Assembly (NCBI GenBank): GCA_963838925.1
Contig: CAWISW010000003.1
Span: 1 to 64,000 of the forward strand
Direction of reading: 5' to 3'
Length of the DNA stretch: 64,000 bases
Source: an uncultured Nitrososphaerota archaeon
Lineage (GTDB): Archaea > Thermoproteota > Nitrososphaeria > Nitrososphaerales > Gagatemarchaeaceae
Shown here: positions 37,340-48,737 of the stretch, piece after piece
Layout: each line of letters opens with the position of its first letter
Position numbering within the stretch: the first letter of the stretch is position 1
Position numbers and translations under genes: made by a program
Notes under the pieces: model-generated
What the model was told of the DNA's origin: nothing
Seen by the model: only the letters and a program-made list of their open reading frames with translations
Databases searched by the model: none

Positions 37340-40300
37340 TTGCGGGGCTGGATACTCGACCTCTACACCGAGAGCCCCGGGAAGATGGTGGTGTGGCTGA
37401 AGCTCGAGGGCGGCGAGACCAGGAGGCTCGTCGACAGGTGGGCGCCCTCGATCTTCGTGGCCTCCGACAGCAGGCGAGACCTGGCCGACCTCGAGAAGGG
37501 GAAGGGGCGGGAGTTCTCCTGGTCGAGGCGCGTCATGAAGCTCGAGAGGGCAACCGACACGCGCGAGAGCGAGGTCCTCGAGCTGGTCGTGGACGACGCG
37601 AAGAAGCTCGCGCCACTCGCCGAGAGCGTCGAGCGCTCGAGGCCCTTCGGGACGTACAGGCTCTACAACGTGGACGTGCCCCCCGAGCAGCTGTACCTCT
37701 ACGAGAACGACCTGTTCCCCCTCGCCTACTGCGAGGTCTCGGAGACCCCCGACGGGCTGTGCTGGGAGCTCCACGACGACATATGGTCGTGCCAGTACTC
37801 GGTCCCTGAGCTCCGCTCGGTCGACATCGAGGTGGCCGTCAGAAAGTCAGGGAAGATGGCCAAGGTCTCCGACCCCATAGAGTCGATCAGCCTGAAGGGC
37901 GGGGACGGCTCCGTCTCGAGGATAGGCGGCGGGTCGGAGCGCGACAAGATCCTCGCCCTCGTCGAGGAGGTCAGGAGGCTCGACCCCGACCTGGTGTTCA
38001 CCAGCGACGGCGACTCGTTCGTCCTGCCCTACCTCGCCTCGAGGGCCGCGGCCAACGGGGTCGCCCAGCGGCTCGTCATCGACAGGGACGGGACGGTCCT
38101 GGAGGCCCCGGCGAAGAAGGGGTCGTCATACTTCAGCTACGGCAAGATCCTGTTCAAGCCCTCGGCGATGAAGCTCCGCGGGAGAATTCACCTCGACAAG
38201 ACCAGCTCCTTCGTCCACAGGGAAACCGGACTTGAGGGGTTTTACGAAGTGAGTAGGGTGTGCAGGCTCCCACTCCACATAGCCAGTAGAGCGAGCATAG
38301 GCAAGGCTCTCTCGAGCCTCCAGTTCTACCACGCGACCAAGGACGGGATCCTCATACCTTGGAAGCCCACCATGGCCGAGAGCTTCAAGAGCAGAGCAGA
38401 GCTTCTCGTCGCGGACCGCGGGGGGTTCATCTTCGAGCCGGAGCTCGGAGTGCATGAGGGGATTGGGGAACTAGATTTCTCCAGTCTATTCCCCAACATC
38501 ATGAGCAAGAAGAACATCTCGCCAGAGACCGTGAGATGTAAGTGCTGCCCCGACTCCACGAACAGAATCCCCGAGCTCGACTGGAATGTCTGCGAGAGGC
38601 GCCCAGAGGGAATAGTCCCCAAAGCGGTCAAGATCATCGTGGAGAAGACGGATGAAATACAAGAGGCTGGAGCAGGTCACCGAGGGCGAGGAGCGGGCAC
38701 GCTACCAGGCTCGGAGAGATGCCCTCAAATGGGTTGGGGTCGCATGCCTTCCTAAGGAATCCCCGGTCTTCATCAGACGAGATGGCATTGACAGATTCTC
38801 AAGGATTGGGGATTTCATAGACGGTCTTGTGGGCGACAGAGCAGGCGTTGTAGAATGTCCGCCTGGAATCTATGTGGCGGGAATGGGTGACGACTACAAG
38901 GCCAAGTTCTGCAAGGTTGCTCGCCTCATCAAGAAGCCGAACAATCGGAAGCTTCTGTCTTTTGTGATGGAAGATGGGCGGAAAATCGTCGCCACGCCCG
39001 ACCATCCGTTCTTTATCCTCAGCGGAGGAGAGATGGAGGTAAAGACGGCGGAGAAATTGCAAGTCGGCGAACTCGTGCCCGTGGCAAAGAAGATTCCACC
39101 GGCCAACGAAATCCAGCAGATTGACCTCATCGAGAAACTGGAAAATTTGCTCACTCCCACGGAGAAACAACTTTGGAGAGTTTCAGGAGAGCAGCTCAAG
39201 GCATCAATCAAAGCAAAGCGCCAAACGCTCGTTGATGCGGCGATTCCCGAAGGATATTCTTACCAAACTGTGGTAACTTGGTGCAAGAGCGGAATCATTC
39301 CTTTGAGGTTTCTTAGCTTGCTCGATATAGCGCCCGAGATTCATCGAGAGCTACGGATAGGATCAGGAAGAAGAAAGGGCGGAAGAGTTGCATGGCTGCC
39401 CGCTGTTCTAGAGGTCGATGGTAGGCTCGGATTTTTCCTAGGCGTGTTCGTAGCGGATGGAAGCGCCACAAACAACGTGGTAAGGCTGGACATAGCACTT
39501 TCTGAGCCCGAGCTACTGGAGACCACAAGAAAGCTTGTGGAATCAGTTTTCAAAATCTCGCCTCATGTTTACAAAGAGAAGAAGGCTCAGATGAATGTAG
39601 TCCAGATAAACAGTGCGAGCTTGGTCAAGGTTCTGGAAAAAGTCTTCGGCCTACCTGGCTCTGCAGACAGAGGCAAACTCAAGGTTCCTGACATCATCTT
39701 CAACTGCCCAGCGCAGACAGCACACAGGTTCATGGCAGGGTTGGTCGCTGGCGATGGGAACGCTGCCAAACGACGCAAGTTCGTCAGCATCGCGACAAAA
39801 TCAAAGAACCTCCAGAATCAAATCTGCGTCCTGGCGGCTAGGTTGGGGTTGGCTTTTCGAATGGGTACAAACCGCGAGGGGACTCAGCCTCTGTACACAG
39901 TCAATTTTGTGGGACCGCAGACACTTGAAAGGATCGGGGATTGGGAGTACTCGAAAGAGGGACAGCGAGATAGAATCCGGTCTTGGTCTGAAGAGATTCA
40001 GACAGGGACTTGCACTCACGCAAGATACGAGAGACTCCCTATAGAGGAATCCGGACTGTTCACTCTCGCGAGGGCTACCAGAACCTCATCTGAACCGCAT
40101 GCGAGAATTGGATTCCGACAATGCCCAGTTCAGGTCGAAAGGAAAATTTCTCGTATTCTTTCAAGAGAGCTGAGCGACAATCAGATGAGGCAGACTATGA
40201 GGATAGAGAGGCTCGTCGGTAGCGATTTCGGATTCGTCAGGATAACGAGGATTGAGGAGCTGGATTCGTGCCCCGAATACGTCTATTGCTTCCAGCTGGC

Positions 40301-41223
40301 AGAAGACGAGGTACCCGGGTTCCTTACCGGGGAAGGTTTGATCTTCACGCACAATTGTTTCGGCTATCTCGGTCACGCCAACGCGAAGTTCGGGCGCATC
40401 GACGCGCACATCGGGGTCTGCGCCTGGGACAGGAAGGTGCTCATCGACGCGGCGAGGGTCGCGGAGAGGCGGGGCTTCAAGGTGATGCACGGCATCGTCG
40501 ACTCCCTCTGGCTTAGGAAGGTCGGCGCGGGCGAGGACGACTTTGAGAGGCTCCGGAGGGAGATAGAGGCGGAGACGAAGTTCGCCATCGCATTCGAGGG
40601 GATCTACAAGTGGATCGCGTTCCTCCCATCGAAGGTGGACGCCGGGGTCCCGGTGCTCAACGCAGTACTTCGGCGCGTACAGGGACGGGAGGCTCAAGGT
40701 CCGCGGAATAGAGGCGAGGCGGCACGACACGCCTGCGTTCTTCTCAAAGTGCCAGCTGGAGATCCTCGAGCTGCTCGCCAGGGCCGACACTGTCGAGGAG
40801 GCGAGGGCGATGGTCGACGGGTGCGTGGGCGTCTTCCTCAAGCACGCGAGGTCGCTCCTCGAGCACCGCGCGCCCATAGCGGGGCTCGTCTTCACGAGGA
40901 ACCTCTCGAGGAAGCCCGGGGAGTACGCGAACAGGTCGCTGACGTCATCGGTCGCTGACCAGCTGGTCAGGGAGGGCGTGGAGTTGCACGCGGGGGAGGC
41001 GGTGCAGTACGTCATCACGGACTATCAGTCCAAGTCCCCGGGAAGGAGGGCGGTGGCGCTCGACCTGGTGGACGAGGATACGGCCTACGACGCGAAGAGG
41101 TACGTGGAGCTCCTCGCTGAGGCGTGCTCGACGGTCCTGAGGCCGTTCAGGGAGGAGTGCGGCGAAGAATGGCTGGTGCGGGAGGTAGAGCGGCGGATCA
41201 TGCATTCCGAGTCCCTGGCGTGA
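37340..41223 (+). CDS. polB2: Family B DNA polymerase, PolB2 group, intein-containing (frameshifts at ~38648 and ~40661)
   Basis: DRGGFIFEP, motif A LDFSSLFPNIM, motif B KWVGVA/CFGYLG, motif C HGIVDSLW, LKVRGIEARRHDTP. Confidence 0.9.
38745..40355 (+). mobile_element. Intein (537 aa) with LAGLIDADG homing endonuclease
   Basis: Begins CLPKES, block B ATPDHPF, FLGVFVADG and FMAGLVAGDG, ends THN followed by Cys; visibly lower GC than the exteins. Confidence 0.93.
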
Positions 41224-43937: not shown

Positions 43938-44911
43938 GTGTCGAGAACCCGGGTCGTCACGGATGCCGGCGTCTATGAGGCGGACGCGGACTGGGCGAGG
44001 ATCCCCGACGGCTGGTCCTTTCGCGAGGTCGCAGGCGTGGCAACCGACTCGCGCTCGCGCGTCTACGTCTTCAGCAGGAGCGAGCACCCGATGATGGTGT
44101 TCGACAGGGAGGGCGGGTTCATCTCCTCGTGGGGGGAGGGCGTCTTCACCAAGGCCCACAACGTCCGCGTCTCGCCCGACGGCTTCGTCTTCTGCTCCGA
44201 CCTCCTCGACCACACCGTCCGCAAGTTCACTCCAGGGGGGAGCTACTGATGACCCTGGGGACCGCCAACGTGCCGTCGGACACGGGAGGGGACGGGAAGA
44301 GCTCCAAGATCAAGAGGTCGGCAGGCCCCTTCAACGGGCCCACCGACGTCGCGTTCGGGCCTAACGGCGAGCTGTTCGTCACGGACGGCTACGCGAACGC
44401 GCGCGTCCACAGGTTCTCGGCGGACGGCGAGCTCATCGGCTCCTGGGGGGCGCCCGGGGGCAAGCCCGGGGAGTTCAGCCTCCCGCACGGCGCCCTCATA
44501 CAGGGCGGGAAGACCCTCTACGTCGCCGACCGGGAGAACAACAGGGTGCAGGTCTTCGACCTCAAGGGGAAGTTCGTCTCCCAGTGGACGGACTTCGCCG
44601 GCCCAACGGGGATCTCTGCGTGCTCGGACGGGAGCCTCGTCGTCAGCGAGTTCGGCTACGACCCGGCGATTCCCACGCGGTACTCGGTCCCCGCGCACGG
44701 CAGGAGGATACTGCCAAGAGTGACCGTGCGCTCGCCGGACGGAGAGCTCCTGGCCAAGATCGAGGGGGAGGACAAGTGCGCGCAGGGGAGCTTCTTCGCG
44801 CCCCACTCGGTGTGCGTCGACCGGAACGGGGACATCTACGTCGGCGAGGTCCCGATCACCCGGCGCGCTCCTGGTCCTTGCCACACGCTACAGAAGCTGG
44901 TCAGGCAGTAG
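43938..44911 (+). CDS. NHL-repeat protein, peptidyl-alpha-hydroxyglycine alpha-amidating lyase-like (frameshift at G run ~44240)
   Basis: FNGPTDVA, DGYANARVH, FSLPHG, YVADRENNRVQVF. Confidence 0.88.
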
Positions 44912-44949
44912 CGGATAGACGCTTTTATTTCACGTGAAGTTCCTGTTGC

Positions 44950-45588
44950 GTGAGTGCTCTTTTCGAGTCTGAAAGGGTCTCAGAACTTGTAGGCGCGATA
45001 CTCGGAGACGGAAACATCTACGACAAACGGCCGGACTATGTCGAGATGTGTGGCAATCCGAGGAACGACCTGGCATACTATGAGAACGTCTTGCTTCCAA
45101 TCGTGAGGGAGGAGCTGGGAAGAAATCCAAAGCTCTTCTTGAGAGACGGAGGACTGCGCTTCAGGATTAACCAAAAGTCCTTCGTAGAGTGGCTCAAGGA
45201 TATTGGTCTCCCGGCGGGCGAAGCAAAAGGGTCCGCCGCGATTCCAGACTTCATAGTCTCCCGCGGAAAGTTCCTCGTCCGATGTGTAAGGGGCATCTAC
45301 GACACCGACGGTAGCGTGTACTTTGACAGGCGGTCGGCCTATCTCAGGCCGTATCCCCGAACCGAATTGCAGATGACCAACGAAGCACTCTTAGACCAAT
45401 TAGACAAGATTCTAAGCCAAATGGACATCAAGCACTCGTTCGTAAGACGCAGTGCGTCATTGTCGCTTGAGACGGCTGGCTTGGAGTCTCTGCGCGGTTT
45501 CTTGCAGAAAATAGGCTTCTCCAATAAGTATCATGTCAGAAGGATTGGAAGCGAGTATCCTGAATTAGTTGGGCTCAACTGCGATTAA
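44950..45588 (+). CDS. Free-standing LAGLIDADG endonuclease
   Basis: ELVGAILGDG and CVRGIYDTDGS motifs; no intein splicing residues; lower GC. Confidence 0.85.
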   Translation: MSALFESERVSELVGAILGDGNIYDKRPDYVEMCGNPRNDLAYYENVLLPIVREELGRNPKLFLRDGGLRFRINQKSFVEWLKDIGLPAGEAKGSAAIPDFIVSRGKFLVRCVRGIYDTDGSVYFDRRSAYLRPYPRTELQMTNEALLDQLDKILSQMDIKHSFVRRSASLSLETAGLESLRGFLQKIGFSNKYHVRRIGSEYPELVGLNCD

Positions 45589-45631
45589 AGTTTCAGTCTT
45601 TAAAAGTGTCAATTAAGGTAGGTCGAGCCGT

Positions 45632-45726
45632 GCCGGCGTAGCTCAGCCTGGTAGAGCGAACCACCTAATCGTGGGCTCAAGTCTCTCGTAAGGACTAGGT
45701 CCCGTGTTCAAATCGCGGCGCCGGCT
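45632..45726 (+). tRNA. tRNA-Thr(CGT) with a 21-nt intron at position 27/28 (45660-45680)
   Basis: GCCGGCG/CGCCGGC acceptor; AGTCT-CTCGTAA-GGACT after splicing; BHB-like junction GAGC/GCTC with GA|A and AA|G cut sites. Confidence 0.92.
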
Positions 45727-45731
45727 TTTTC

Positions 45732-46493
45732 TCATATCTTAGAATCCGCTCTAGACTTTATCGACTTGAGTTTGACATAGACGTTATCCTCTTCCAAGAC
45801 TGCATTCCGAATCGAACTTGGATCCCGGCCTTGCAGAATCATTCGTTTCACTTTCAAATCCAACCAACTAGGCCATTTTCGCGGGAATACTCGAGCATTA
45901 GCTAACTTACGAAGAAGTTTACCTCTGTGAGTATCCACAAATGGACTGAAAATCCAGAGAGTGTTTGCGATGGCAACCGTGATGCTAATCCCGCAACTTC
46001 CACGATGCCAGTATTCCCTGGGGTTCGCATTTAGGGATGTAAGAAGATCCTTGATCAGGCGGACATTTGGTTCGCTAGTTATCGTGACTGTCTTGTTCCT
46101 GATGTTGACTGACCCATCGGAGTCGGCTAGGCCTCGAAGAAACCAAAGCCGGTTCTCGGGTGACGCGAGAAGAAGCCAGTTCATTTTCACAGGATGATGG
46201 GAGGTGACTTCGGTCTCTGCGAGCCCGAGACAGGAGACGTGGAACCAGAGGAATACTTCGGAAAAATATGAGTTCCACTTGAATGCTCCGTGCGGTTCTG
46301 TTTCGTTTGGAAGTGCATCTACAATCCTGCTCCATGGTACTCCTAGTTGAGTGATGCAATCCATTACGGAATTTCCAAGCGCGAGATTCTCCTCATGCCC
46401 TCGACATAGTTGAAGCTGGAATCTGGCCCACTGGTGCCGAGTGGAAAATGTCTTTCCTGCATCGCCTACCATCCACCCCAGAAAGTAATACAT
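45732..46493 (-). CDS. Free-standing LAGLIDADG endonuclease (frame open upstream to ~46727)
   Basis: YFLGWMVGDA and WFLRGLADSDGS motifs; lower GC; stop codon immediately after the tRNA 3' end. Confidence 0.82.
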   Translation of the reverse strand: MYYFLGWMVGDAGKTFSTRHQWARFQLQLCRGHEENLALGNSVMDCITQLGVPWSRIVDALPNETEPHGAFKWNSYFSEVFLWFHVSCLGLAETEVTSHHPVKMNWLLLASPENRLWFLRGLADSDGSVNIRNKTVTITSEPNVRLIKDLLTSLNANPREYWHRGSCGISITVAIANTLWIFSPFVDTHRGKLLRKLANARVFPRKWPSWLDLKVKRMILQGRDPSSIRNAVLEEDNVYVKLKSIKSRADSKI

Positions 46494-46849
46494 GAGTTGA
46501 AGGAATCGGTCCTTATGTTTAGCGTCGCCTAGATGGGCCAGCCTTATCCGAAGAACCCCATTCTCAAACTCTGCGGGGGACCTAATCGGGGCAAAACTGA
46601 GATTGACTGAAGCCCATTTTTTAGTGACCGAAGCGGAGCCCGGTTTCCTCGAGAGAAACCACCTCTCCCTCTCACCTGCAATAAGATGAAGTTGACTTGG
46701 GATGAATGTGATTGGAGAGTGAGACCCTCAAATGCAATAAGAAGTTGTCTGGGAATCTAAGCGCCCACGCTGACCGATTATCCGCATAGTTCTTCTTTCT
46801 CGATCGAGAAAGAGAGGGCTCAAATCCCTCCGTCGGCTCCTACCTCTTC

Positions 46850-47548
46850 TCACGAAGGGCCCATGCTGATGTAGGGCGCCATCGAGCGGAGGACCTTCCC
46901 CTCGGCCTTGCGCAAGTGCTCCTCGTAGGTGGTCCTCGGCAGCCTGAGCTTGCTGGCCATCTCCTCGGTGGTCACCTTCTTGGGGACCTGGTAGTAGCCG
47001 TTCTCGAGCGCGAAGACGAGCGCCTGCGCCTGCTTCTTCGTTAGCCCGCCGAAGAGCGCGCTCGTTGAGACCAGCATCGTGTCCTTGACCGCGCCCGACC
47101 TGATTGCCCGGCGGGAGATGACCTCGACCTTGCAGTACCCGCCGAGCGTCGCGAAGACGTTGCGCGCGTCCTTCTCGCTGAACGAAATCATCCTGTAGTA
47201 CTCCCAGCCACCCTTGTAGACGCAGGGCTGTAGCTCGAGGCAGTTGTTCTTCTCGAAGACCGGGGTCACGGGCGCCGGTATGCTGTCGCACCCGCAGTGG
47301 TGGATGACGACCTGGAGGTTGCGGACGCTGTTCGACCTGCGGAGGGGCTTGACCTTCATCGCCCTCCAGACCGAATCGATGTCGTCTTGATACCGGTCGA
47401 AGCTCTCTACCCCGCCTCCCTTGGAGATCTCGAGCACGTCGGTGTCCGAGTTGCACCACGAAGACATGACGAGCTCGGGGTGCTGCTTCGAGAGGTCGTT
47501 AAGCGGGCAGTCATGCTGGAGCCTGAAAGCGGTCTCGTAGAGCGTCAT
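46850..47548 (-). CDS. Bacterio-opsin activator-type (HTH_10) transcriptional regulator
   Basis: LTKKQ..AL..A...GYYQVPK...EHLRKAE.K C-terminal HTH; ATG start at 47548. Confidence 0.9.
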   Translation of the reverse strand: MTLYETAFRLQHDCPLNDLSKQHPELVMSSWCNSDTDVLEISKGGGVESFDRYQDDIDSVWRAMKVKPLRRSNSVRNLQVVIHHCGCDSIPAPVTPVFEKNNCLELQPCVYKGGWEYYRMISFSEKDARNVFATLGGYCKVEVISRRAIRSGAVKDTMLVSTSALFGGLTKKQAQALVFALENGYYQVPKKVTTEEMASKLRLPRTTYEEHLRKAEGKVLRSMAPYISMGPS

Positions 47549-48501: not shown

Positions 48502-48594
48502 GTCCTGAATCCAAGCACAGCTTCGAAGTGTTCGAGTTAAGTGTTTCCGGCGCACCGAAAACTTAAGTGAGCATCGAGTCTGAGCCGGAGTCGT

Positions 48595-48731
48595 GCCAAG
48601 GTAGCTCAGCCTGTCCCTACGGGGGCTATGGAGAGTGCCGCAAGGCCTCTAACACTCGGCTGAAGACCGAGAACAACCGTCACAAGGATTGTTGTCGGGA
48701 TCTGTCGTCGGTTCAAATCCGACTCTTGGCA
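48595..48731 (+). tRNA. tRNA-Phe(GAA) with three non-canonical introns (48614-48629, 48636-48652, 48672-48701)
   Basis: Removing three BHB-like-bounded segments gives GCCAAGGTAGCTCAGCCTGGGAGAGCACTCGGCTGAAGACCGAGCTGTCGTCGGTTCAAATCCGACTCTTGGCA, a complete cloverleaf. Confidence 0.9.
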
Positions 48732-48737
48732 CTTTAA

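Follow-up and report, generated by a model that had tools for sequence, protein, structure and literature searches.

Two free-standing LAGLIDADG genes inserted on either side of an intron-containing tRNA-Thr(CGT) gene in a Nitrososphaerota archaeon

The first 64 kb of contig CAWISW010000003.1 (C3) from the genome of an uncultured Nitrososphaerota archaeon (assembly GCA_963838925.1, 1.84 Mb, 61% GC), referred to here as the window, carry a gene for tRNA-Thr(CGT) that is flanked on its two sides by open reading frames (ORFs) of the LAGLIDADG type, ORF A and ORF B. Comparison of alleles demonstrated that A and B are both insertions. With A came a new stretch from the TATA box to the first base (+1) of the tRNA, and with B a different T arm and acceptor strand, the native ones being left behind as a scar. 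Moreover, lineages of these genes are specific for the type of tRNA beside which they lie. In the reading that we consider probable, A and B are free-standing LAGLIDADG homing-endonuclease cassettes, unrelated to each other, and both have homed to tRNA-Thr(CGT). Each enzyme would recognise and cut a site of ~20 bp overlapping the tRNA gene in cassette-free alleles, and repair of the break would then copy the cassette from an occupied allele. By replacing part of its target, the cassette would keep the host tRNA working and would protect its own allele from being cut. In the following, G000 denotes the genome of the window, other G numbers denote genomes of the same genus (n = 22) and L numbers denote fetched loci.

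Occupied and empty alleles of the tRNA-Thr(CGT) locus

ORF A, the tRNA gene and ORF B make up an island of ~1.9 kb between the stop codon of an NHL-repeat gene (44909-44911) and that of an HTH_10-type regulator gene (46850-46852). Across 44800-46899 the GC content in 300-nt windows is 0.45-0.56, compared with 0.61-0.70 on both sides. The features of the island and its right-hand flank are as follows:

44912-44949 (+): left end of the island with the likely promoter of ORF A, a TTTTAT-like box at ~44923-44929 being the putative promoter element
44950-45588 (+): ORF A, predicted free-standing single-chain LAGLIDADG homing-endonuclease gene (212 aa; PF14528)
45589-45631 (+): spacer with a TTTAAAA box (45599-45605) ~27-33 nt before the tRNA, a putative promoter
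45632-45659 (+): exon 1 of tRNA-Thr(CGT), positions 1-27
45660-45680 (+): 21-nt intron at 27/28, relaxed bulge-helix-bulge form (HBh')
45681-45726 (+): exon 2 of tRNA-Thr(CGT), with T arm CCGTG/CGCGG
45732-46727 (-): ORF B, free-standing LAGLIDADG gene convergent with the tRNA (open frame of 331 codons)
46728-46813 (no strand): distal part of the B insertion, upstream of B, with GC still low
46814-46837 (+): scar of 24 nt, the displaced native T arm and acceptor 3' strand of tRNA-Thr(CGT)
46850-47542 (-): HTH_10/HVO_A0563-type regulator gene, the right-hand host flank

An earlier note on this DNA, made from the letters of the window, had described two free-standing two-motif LAGLIDADG ORFs of lower GC than their host, one ending 43 nt upstream of the tRNA and the other 5 nt downstream, and this description was confirmed throughout. 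No host gene or intron encloses either ORF, both are bounded by stops in intergenic DNA, and the 21-nt tRNA intron contains no ORF, so that A and B do not belong to the intron- or intein-encoded class. An arrangement with A or B inside a large tRNA intron or a split tRNA was rejected, because the tRNA is complete without them.

Regulator orthologs were located in nine of the 22 other genomes of the genus, and in five of these nine tRNA-Thr(CGT) lies beside the regulator. In G019, G006 and G022 the order is NHL-repeat gene, tRNA, regulator, with neither ORF, and the tRNA is preceded by ~50 nt and followed by 10-50 nt of spacer. In G018, A is present (76% identity) and B is absent, and the regulator stop lies 10 nt from the tRNA end. 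In G020 A is absent, and an insert of ~940 nt after the tRNA starts with the last ~55 nt of the B gene. The two A-bearing alleles, G000 and G018, share a sequence from the TATA box to +1 of the tRNA that is distinct from that of the nuclease-free alleles; the spacer between ORF A and the tRNA is unlike the promoter of the latter and resembles the spacer after A in G018 and in the metagenome locus L150.

The G020 insert (L069 557-1500) continues past the B remnant for ~0.9 kb with two overlapping frames and an NN gap. These frames gave no Pfam match, and an interpretation of the insert as a third LAGLIDADG gene was not supported. It may reflect turnover of inserts at the same site.

Soil metagenomes provide further alleles. 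Two runs that also hold the exact sequence of the window contain contigs from a co-occurring relative, and in one of these 45714 is connected to 46862, so that 1147 nt are missing; the T-stem 3' strand and the acceptor end found at the junction are of native type. Other soil contigs pass from 45630 into the nuclease-free promoter. In a third run, from another study, the tRNA and B were covered at ~92-95% identity and A was not covered. The empty alleles for which the earlier note had proposed a search therefore exist, as G019, G006 and G022 with neither ORF and as a soil contig without B. A B ortholog occupies another tRNA gene in the same manner: in G012 an insertion of 1106 nt starts from the last bases of tRNA-Thr(GGT), where the same place in G000 measures 111 nt. 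Beside tRNA-Thr(GGT) we also observed a stretch of 191 nt (G000 C3:233026-233216; L046 2554-2744) that is 97% identical between G000 and G012, far more conserved than the DNA around it, and that may be a structural RNA.

Both proteins match PF14528 (LAGLIDADG_3, cut-off 22.5 bits), ORF A with E 4.7e-5 and 24.0 bits and ORF B with E 1e-5 and 26.1 bits. Each contains two motifs, ..LGDGNI.. and ..YDTDGS.. in A and ..VGDAGK.. and ..ADSDGS.. in B, and each motif keeps its acidic residue. In an alignment of eight A-family members both motifs are conserved, with G-D-G invariant and D/E kept, and in five aligned B-family members D89 and D204 are invariant. The AlphaFold2 model of ORF A (pLDDT 89.3, pTM 0.88) matched I-Tsp061I (2dch) best in Foldseek, over the whole length, with E 4.7e-12 and TM scores of 0.72/0.74; further matches were intein nucleases and, at ranks 10-44, I-DmoI entries. 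ORF A is thus predicted to adopt the fold of a single-chain LAGLIDADG nuclease nearest to I-Tsp061I and I-DmoI. Searches by sequence were less informative: NCBIfam contains no family that would cover A, B or two further cassettes and returned only weak matches to intein-bearing models, and the PDB sequence search gave no LAGLIDADG or otherwise significant match (one unrelated hit with E 0.37 for A, none for B).

The model of the 331-codon frame of ORF B (pLDDT 82.2) has the expected order of secondary structure, residues 51-66 forming a helix of high confidence and residues 72-89 the first LAGLIDADG helix. From the sole canonical start ORF B would encode 253 aa (45732-46493), in a frame that is open to 46727. 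This start, codon 79 (M79, 46493), is the only ATG, GTG or TTG of the frame and sits in the middle of the first LAGLIDADG helix, although residues ~40-78, upstream of M79, still align with orthologs. Hence B may be recently disabled or decaying, or an unusual start may be used. Close orthologs of A were found in two of the 22 genomes of the genus (G018, 76%; G010, 59%) and close orthologs of B in three, with 45-47% identity in G012 and G009. A B-family branch of 400-440 aa (G000 C1:95472-96785 and relatives) is present in most of the genus genomes, with one to three copies in each; ARAGORN found no tRNA near it in the loci fetched.

Could the two genes instead encode domesticated WhiA-like LAGLIDADG DNA-binding proteins that regulate or protect the neighbouring tRNA genes? 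WhiA structures do occur among the fold matches of ORF A, at ranks 12 and 48 only, and the A family is co-oriented with the tRNA at a gap of only 15-40 nt in some loci. On the other hand, the WhiA profile PF14527 reached 13.5 bits against a cut-off of 23.2, which places the proteins outside the WhiA-type class, the catalytic acidic residues are kept, and the genes are patchy in distribution, low in GC and in part frameshifted or interrupted by stops. Vertical conservation like that of WhiA-type regulators, which the earlier note had named as an outcome that would speak against its proposal, was not seen, and we regard a regulatory role of this kind as most improbable.

Displaced tRNA ends and fidelity to tRNA type

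Within the B insertion, the scar lies close to the far end. Base for base it equals the working 3' end of the tRNA in G018, G020, G006 and G022, and it shares 15 of 24 positions with the working copy of G000 (45702-45725). The working T arm of G000 (CCGTG/CGCGG) and its acceptor 3' strand differ from those four alleles: the T stem is wholly recoded yet still paired, and the acceptor pair is compensated. Since the scar equals the working end of relatives and the working end of G000 does not, B must have come with a foreign 3' end and displaced the native one. The B locus thus combines an endonuclease ORF, a diverged 3' end in use and a displaced native end, which is the layout of the mitochondrial mobile ORFs (mORFs) discussed below.

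Related layouts were found at other loci. In G010 the A ortholog (59%) lies 3' of the tRNA in convergent orientation, and beyond it stands a displaced fragment of variable loop, T arm and acceptor; the displaced T arm is of the type that works in G000, so the A ortholog there has the mORF-type layout as well. At tRNA-Arg(GCG) in G021 and G009 a full tRNA is followed by a LAGLIDADG gene and then by a 3' fragment, and the working T arm of G009 is of the scar type of G021. A further likely scar was seen at L139, in another family of the phylum. On the 5' side, tRNA remnants upstream of A-family genes were limited to L040 and L044, each with a degenerate old tRNA copy, and to L150; none was present in G000, G018, L035, L037, L043 or the tRNA-Asp locus of G000. 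Separately, the tRNA-Arg(GCG) of G009 (L093) has an insert of ~18 nt in the 5' strand of the anticodon stem that is missing in G021 (L078).

Duplicated tRNA ends are also what an integrase would leave. tRNA genes are classic targets of integration, and integration leaves the end of the tRNA directly repeated, according to the part of the literature considered here (PMC3293823). The scars, being direct repeats of tRNA ends, could then be att sites of integrase-type elements or transposons, with the LAGLIDADG genes as passengers or leftovers. However, the ~1.1 kb between tRNA and scar encode only the LAGLIDADG gene, a Pfam scan of A, B and the flanking genes showed no integrase, and there is no other long frame within 44912-46813. 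The repeats are not identical cores, with 15 of 24 positions shared and the whole T stem recoded. Moreover, the same adjacency is found in several unrelated LAGLIDADG families, and the A lineage tracks one tRNA identity across distant hosts. Given the lack of any other gene between tRNA and scar, and repeats that differ from each other, an integrase origin is unlikely, and we give it very little weight.

Adjacency to tRNA genes extends beyond this locus. G000 has 26 PF14528 matches, of which those in long frames are inteins, separate from A and B. Six of ten free-standing LAGLIDADG frames in G000 abut tRNAs, at five loci (Cys, Pro, Asp, Gln and, with two frames, Thr), compared with 3.2% of random G000 intervals that lie within 160 nt of a T-arm-plus-acceptor site. 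In the genus sample, 40 free-standing frames of <500 codons from the 22 other genomes, 27 have a tRNA within ~160 nt (22 by ARAGORN and five by a T-arm-plus-acceptor scan), which is to be read as a description and not as a test. ARAGORN calls with introns of hundreds of nt were disregarded as unreliable, T-arm-like matches inside the ORFs of L082 and L086 were not counted, and L083, a 47-codon fragment, was left out of clustering. The enrichment of LAGLIDADG genes beside tRNAs, for which the earlier note had suggested a survey, is therefore present (27 of 40 against the 3.2% background).

Clustering by BLASTP gave a large family (n = 31) with the tRNA downstream on the opposite strand in 22 members, the A family (n = 11) with the tRNA downstream on the same strand in nine, and a separate B family. 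Across the phylum, relatives of one member of the large family occur in 37 of 301 genomes sampled, mostly in a few families, often in many copies and with stops. In families of the phylum other than that of the window, a tRNA-like site lies no more than 300 nt away at 16 of 29 fetched large-family loci, and at 15 of the 16 the arrangement is convergent.

Homing-endonuclease genes usually decay once fixed. The distribution of A and B is patchy and not vertical, and many LAGLIDADG copies carry stops. In G000 the LAGLIDADG genes beside tRNA-Cys (C1:284362-285169) and tRNA-Asp (C2:55446-56054) are broken into pieces, with in-frame TGA or TAA codons, and look like decaying cassettes. Four paralogues of 350-400 aa (C2:97196-98287, C2:217389-218450, C3:558750-559958 and C3:751066-752193) have an N-terminal helix-turn-helix-like region in addition to LAGLIDADG, and just one of them abuts a tRNA, tRNA-Gln. 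Among the longer frames, a 780-codon open frame in the window (38616-40958, +) has two LAGLIDADG_3 matches (39423-39644 and 39726-39932) and is presumably an intein-bearing host gene; several other long frames in G000 have one to four such matches each.

The lineages keep to particular tRNAs. Nine of the ten loci of the A lineage (36-76% identity) adjoin tRNA-Thr(CGT), with differing flanking genes, and the tenth, L147, ends at a contig end 71 nt past the gene. Fourteen A-relative loci came from metagenomes; among the seven at 36-72% identity, six (L148-L153) are at tRNA-Thr(CGT), and the tRNA-Thr genes of L151-L153 are intron-less and widely unlike that of the window in sequence and context. 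More distant relatives, at 27-30% identity, adjoin tRNA-Gln(CTG) at four of six loci. Of five close B-family members, three adjoin a tRNA-Thr gene at its 3' end and one is beside another tRNA; the tRNA is tRNA-Thr(CGT) in G000 and an intron-less tRNA-Thr(GGT) in G012 and G009, and the tRNA-Thr(GGT) site of G000 is empty. In the large family, the nearest relative in the set is at the same tRNA type for 23 of 25 tRNA-adjacent members, an agreement that synteny alone could produce; the A lineage is more telling.

Such fidelity also bears on the view that tRNA flanks are merely tolerant, short and well-insulated intergenic landing spots for nucleases without any specificity for tRNA genes. Most convergent loci have no scar, and many cassettes sit just outside the tRNA, as this view would predict. 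But members of one lineage recur beside one tRNA identity in contexts that are otherwise unrelated, on one side of the gene or the other, there are insertions that reach into the tRNA and substitute a portion of it, and the B family occupies two different tRNA-Thr isoacceptor genes. We therefore find indifferent landing quite improbable. The suggestion of the earlier note that these are selfish tRNA-associated genes is borne out by presence/absence alleles, by tRNA-Thr lineages in unrelated contexts and by the patchy distribution.

Several observations weigh against homing of A and B to the tRNA gene as we propose it. Of 35 convergent loci scanned, only 3 have a clear 3' scar beyond the cassette; thus replacement of a tRNA segment is not the rule. 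The A ortholog occurs in two positions relative to the same tRNA, being on the 3' side in G010, L148 and L149, which is hard to fit with one target site. In G020 the B remnant directly follows a native-type T arm, which does not suit a B enzyme that targets the native T arm. The tRNA of G018 equals that of G006 and G022 over the first 27 nt, the T arm and the acceptor strand despite the presence of A upstream, so that any immunity there must lie in the 5' flank. In G000 the conserved N-terminus of B has no canonical start. Related genomes are not independent, and the enrichment figures overstate the statistics. Cleavage, target site and immunity are inferred steps, and the support for them is indirect, from occupied and empty alleles and from scars.

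The 27/28 intron and its relation to the nucleases

The tRNA gene spans 45632-45726 (+); ARAGORN reports it as 'tRNA-???' and Rfam misses it. Excision of 45660-45680 by the bulge-helix-bulge (BHB) rule yields a 74-nt tRNA-Thr(cgt) with a standard cloverleaf. The motif after the D arm reads GAGC / GAA / CCAC-loop-GUGG / GCUC / AAG, in which the central helix GAGC/GCUC (4 bp) borrows the 3' strand of the D stem and is followed by the inner helix CCAC/GUGG (4 bp). The bulges GA|A and AA|G have 3 nt each and would be cut after the second bulge nucleotide on each side. No outer helix was seen, so the predicted structure is the relaxed HBh' form of the BHB intron class. The earlier note had remarked on an unusual intron position, and indeed the intron is non-canonical, since it follows position 27, within the 5' strand of the anticodon stem.

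The same excision rule restores tRNA-Thr(cgt) in seven of eight other alleles, the exception being G019; in G010 it yields a perfectly paired anticodon stem, and the inner helix there is changed in a compensating manner. In the nuclease-free G019 allele (L068 1355-1467) the T loop contains a second insert, of ~20 nt (near 59/60), in addition to the intron at 27/28. In the window, the 3' end of the intron (45672-45679, GGGCUCAA) matches an eight-base stretch of the T stem and loop of native type at 46816-46823, which may be chance or a trace of the origin of the intron. Another tRNA in the window (48594-48733, +) has an acceptor and a T arm, several inserts, in the D loop and before the T arm, and an anticodon loop GAA (Phe) by eye; plain ARAGORN and Rfam missed it, and ARAGORN in intron mode merged it into a false 727-nt 'tRNA-Glu'. 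In Rfam alignments, tRNAs downstream of A-family genes show inserts at varied places.

The earlier note had further proposed that the nuclease and the intron spread together, and here no correlation was found. The 27/28 intron is present in nine of nine alleles (G000, G018, G010, G019, G020, G006, G022, L148 and L150; L149 repeats the tRNA sequence of L148 and was not counted apart). Four of these have no intact LAGLIDADG gene, namely the empty alleles G019, G006 and G022 and G020 with its remnant of the B 3' end. Conversely, three A relatives (36-44% identity) lie directly upstream of an intron-less tRNA-Thr(CGT). Since the intron is in all alleles and A relatives stand at intron-less tRNA-Thr genes, simple co-spread fails at this locus. 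The intron predates the two insertions now seen and has been inherited in the genus with or without a nuclease.

A more elaborate version would make the intron an immunity device. An A-type nuclease would cut intron-less tRNA-Thr across 27/28, and nuclease and intron would spread together: along with its own 5' exon the cassette would bring a spacer, which would interrupt the site and be removed by splicing as a BHB intron, and recombination between the two copies of the 5' exon would later delete the nuclease and leave the intron behind. The locus L150 has the layout that this scheme calls for, in the order 27-nt 5' tRNA-Thr fragment, A ortholog (56%), A-type spacer and complete tRNA-Thr(CGT), the last interrupted by the 27/28 intron. 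At every base the fragment agrees with the opening 27 nt of the tRNA in the window, and it is followed by a GCTTTTAT stretch similar to that at the left end of the island. Its end implies that the old gene was broken within a nucleotide of the intron site. An abutted copy of the 5' exon would rebuild the intron-less target, so that a spacer would be needed on logical grounds, and the nuclease-free alleles have kept a promoter of native type, as loss through the repeat would predict. A like layout exists at tRNA-Thr(GGU) of Caldiarchaeum, where, as far as the portion of that report used here goes, a 24/25 intron was gained with the insertion (PMC3293823).

Other observations speak against this scheme. 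The intron is in every one, including the four without an intact nuclease gene; the three A relatives upstream of intron-less tRNA-Thr(CGT) have no tRNA fragment elsewhere at their loci; G000 and G018 lack a 5' fragment upstream of A; the A ortholog is on the 3' side in G010, L148 and L149; and the full layout occurs at L150 only. We thus regard intron-based immunity as possible but rather unlikely. What the L150 locus, together with the likeness to Caldiarchaeum, makes plausible is that the 27/28 intron is an old cassette seam that has outlived its nuclease.

Comparison with known systems

How archaea came by non-canonical introns in their tRNAs, by split tRNAs and by stray pieces of tRNA is a question of long standing, and integrases of viruses or plasmids have usually been suspected. 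Several LAGLIDADG families, each keeping to one tRNA identity, offer a concrete and abundant agent instead, and some of their cassettes bring replacement pieces of the tRNA, with the old piece left as a scar. This also suggests a selfish cause for variation of tRNA T stems, and, judged from the association of lineages with loci, such families may offer natural enzymes with specificity for tRNA genes. A wider reading, which we put forward tentatively and which falls short of probable, is that free-standing LAGLIDADG cassettes are a main engine of tRNA gene disruption in Nitrososphaerota, acting by cut-and-rescue with recoded pieces. Turnover of T-arm alleles, in which the working arm of one genome is the scar of another, and scattered tRNA fragments may result from this process. 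Cassettes that carry their own 5' exon may leave the spacer at the seam as a non-canonical BHB intron after loss of the nuclease; the introns at 27/28 here and at 24/25 in Caldiarchaeum may be such seams, and the 'recombinase' of Caldiarchaeum may be such a nuclease.

A closely similar archaeal layout comes from Caldiarchaeum subterraneum (Sugahara et al. 2012, PMC3293823), where a 5' tRNA-Thr fragment is followed by an insertion of 1,868 bp and a working tRNA-Thr. The insertion reaches tRNA position 27 and includes the new non-canonical intron at 24/25, and it holds an 813-bp ORF on the strand of the tRNA and directly upstream of it, with a paralogue beside tRNA-Thr(CGU). In the sections of that paper drawn on here, the ORF is described as a putative DNA recombinase (by SVMProt), integration of the pNOB8 type is proposed and LAGLIDADG is not mentioned (PMC3293823). 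L150 matches this layout and the G000 locus does so in part; a LAGLIDADG nature of the Caldiarchaeum ORF would be our conjecture. The hallmarks of integrative elements of the SSV or pNOB8 type, an integrase gene and identical att cores, were not found at the locus of the window.

Full-text searching, which covers few subscription journals, retrieved no description of LAGLIDADG genes beside archaeal tRNA genes, and the term LAGLIDADG did not occur in the examined text of a survey of integrated elements in Thaumarchaeota (PMC6563490). The enzymes nearest to ORF A in fold, I-Tsp061I and I-DmoI, are likewise single-chain two-motif proteins that match over the full length. They are encoded inside BHB introns of rRNA, whereas A and B lie outside both tRNA and intron, and the sequence identity is 12-17%.

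Collaborative homing, in which a free-standing nuclease acts together with an intron that splits its target, is known from psbA of cyanophages and nrdA of phages, and its logic is that of the model of the earlier note and of the L150 layout. The introns in those systems are self-splicing group I introns in protein genes; the present one is a BHB intron of a tRNA, and co-occurrence was not seen. A free-standing homing endonuclease among tRNA genes is represented by SegB of phage T4, which drives preferential inheritance of the tRNA region (PMC2330249). SegB belongs to the GIY-YIG family and to a phage genome, and a replacement tRNA segment or a scar is not described in the parts of that report considered. 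A conceptual likeness exists to the synthetic Cleave-and-Rescue drive, at least as outlined in the excerpt used (PMC6442612), which combines a nuclease against an essential gene with a recoded copy that cannot be cut; that drive is engineered, is based on Cas9 and acts from a distant site.

A close match is provided by mitochondrial mORFs, described for atp6 of Allomyces macrogynus and for atp6, atp9, cox2 and nad3 of Glomus (PMC3630166). As far as the portion of that work considered here describes them, a free-standing LAGLIDADG or GIY-YIG ORF is inserted into a conserved gene together with a foreign, diverged 3' end of that gene, and the native 3' end is displaced downstream, where it decays (PMC3630166). 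The B cassette with its scar at 46814-46837 has exactly this layout. The host gene of an mORF is a mitochondrial protein gene, whereas here it is a tRNA gene of an archaeal chromosome; recoding is achieved by synonymous codons in the former and by compensating stem pairs in the latter; and L040, L044 and L150, with an old tRNA copy or 5' fragment upstream, form a mirror image on the 5' side. By analogy, the mechanism that we favour would be the mORF principle, in which a foreign gene end is carried and the native one displaced, applied to tRNA genes, and the principle of a mobile ORF with a replacement end would thereby extend to RNA genes of a cellular chromosome.

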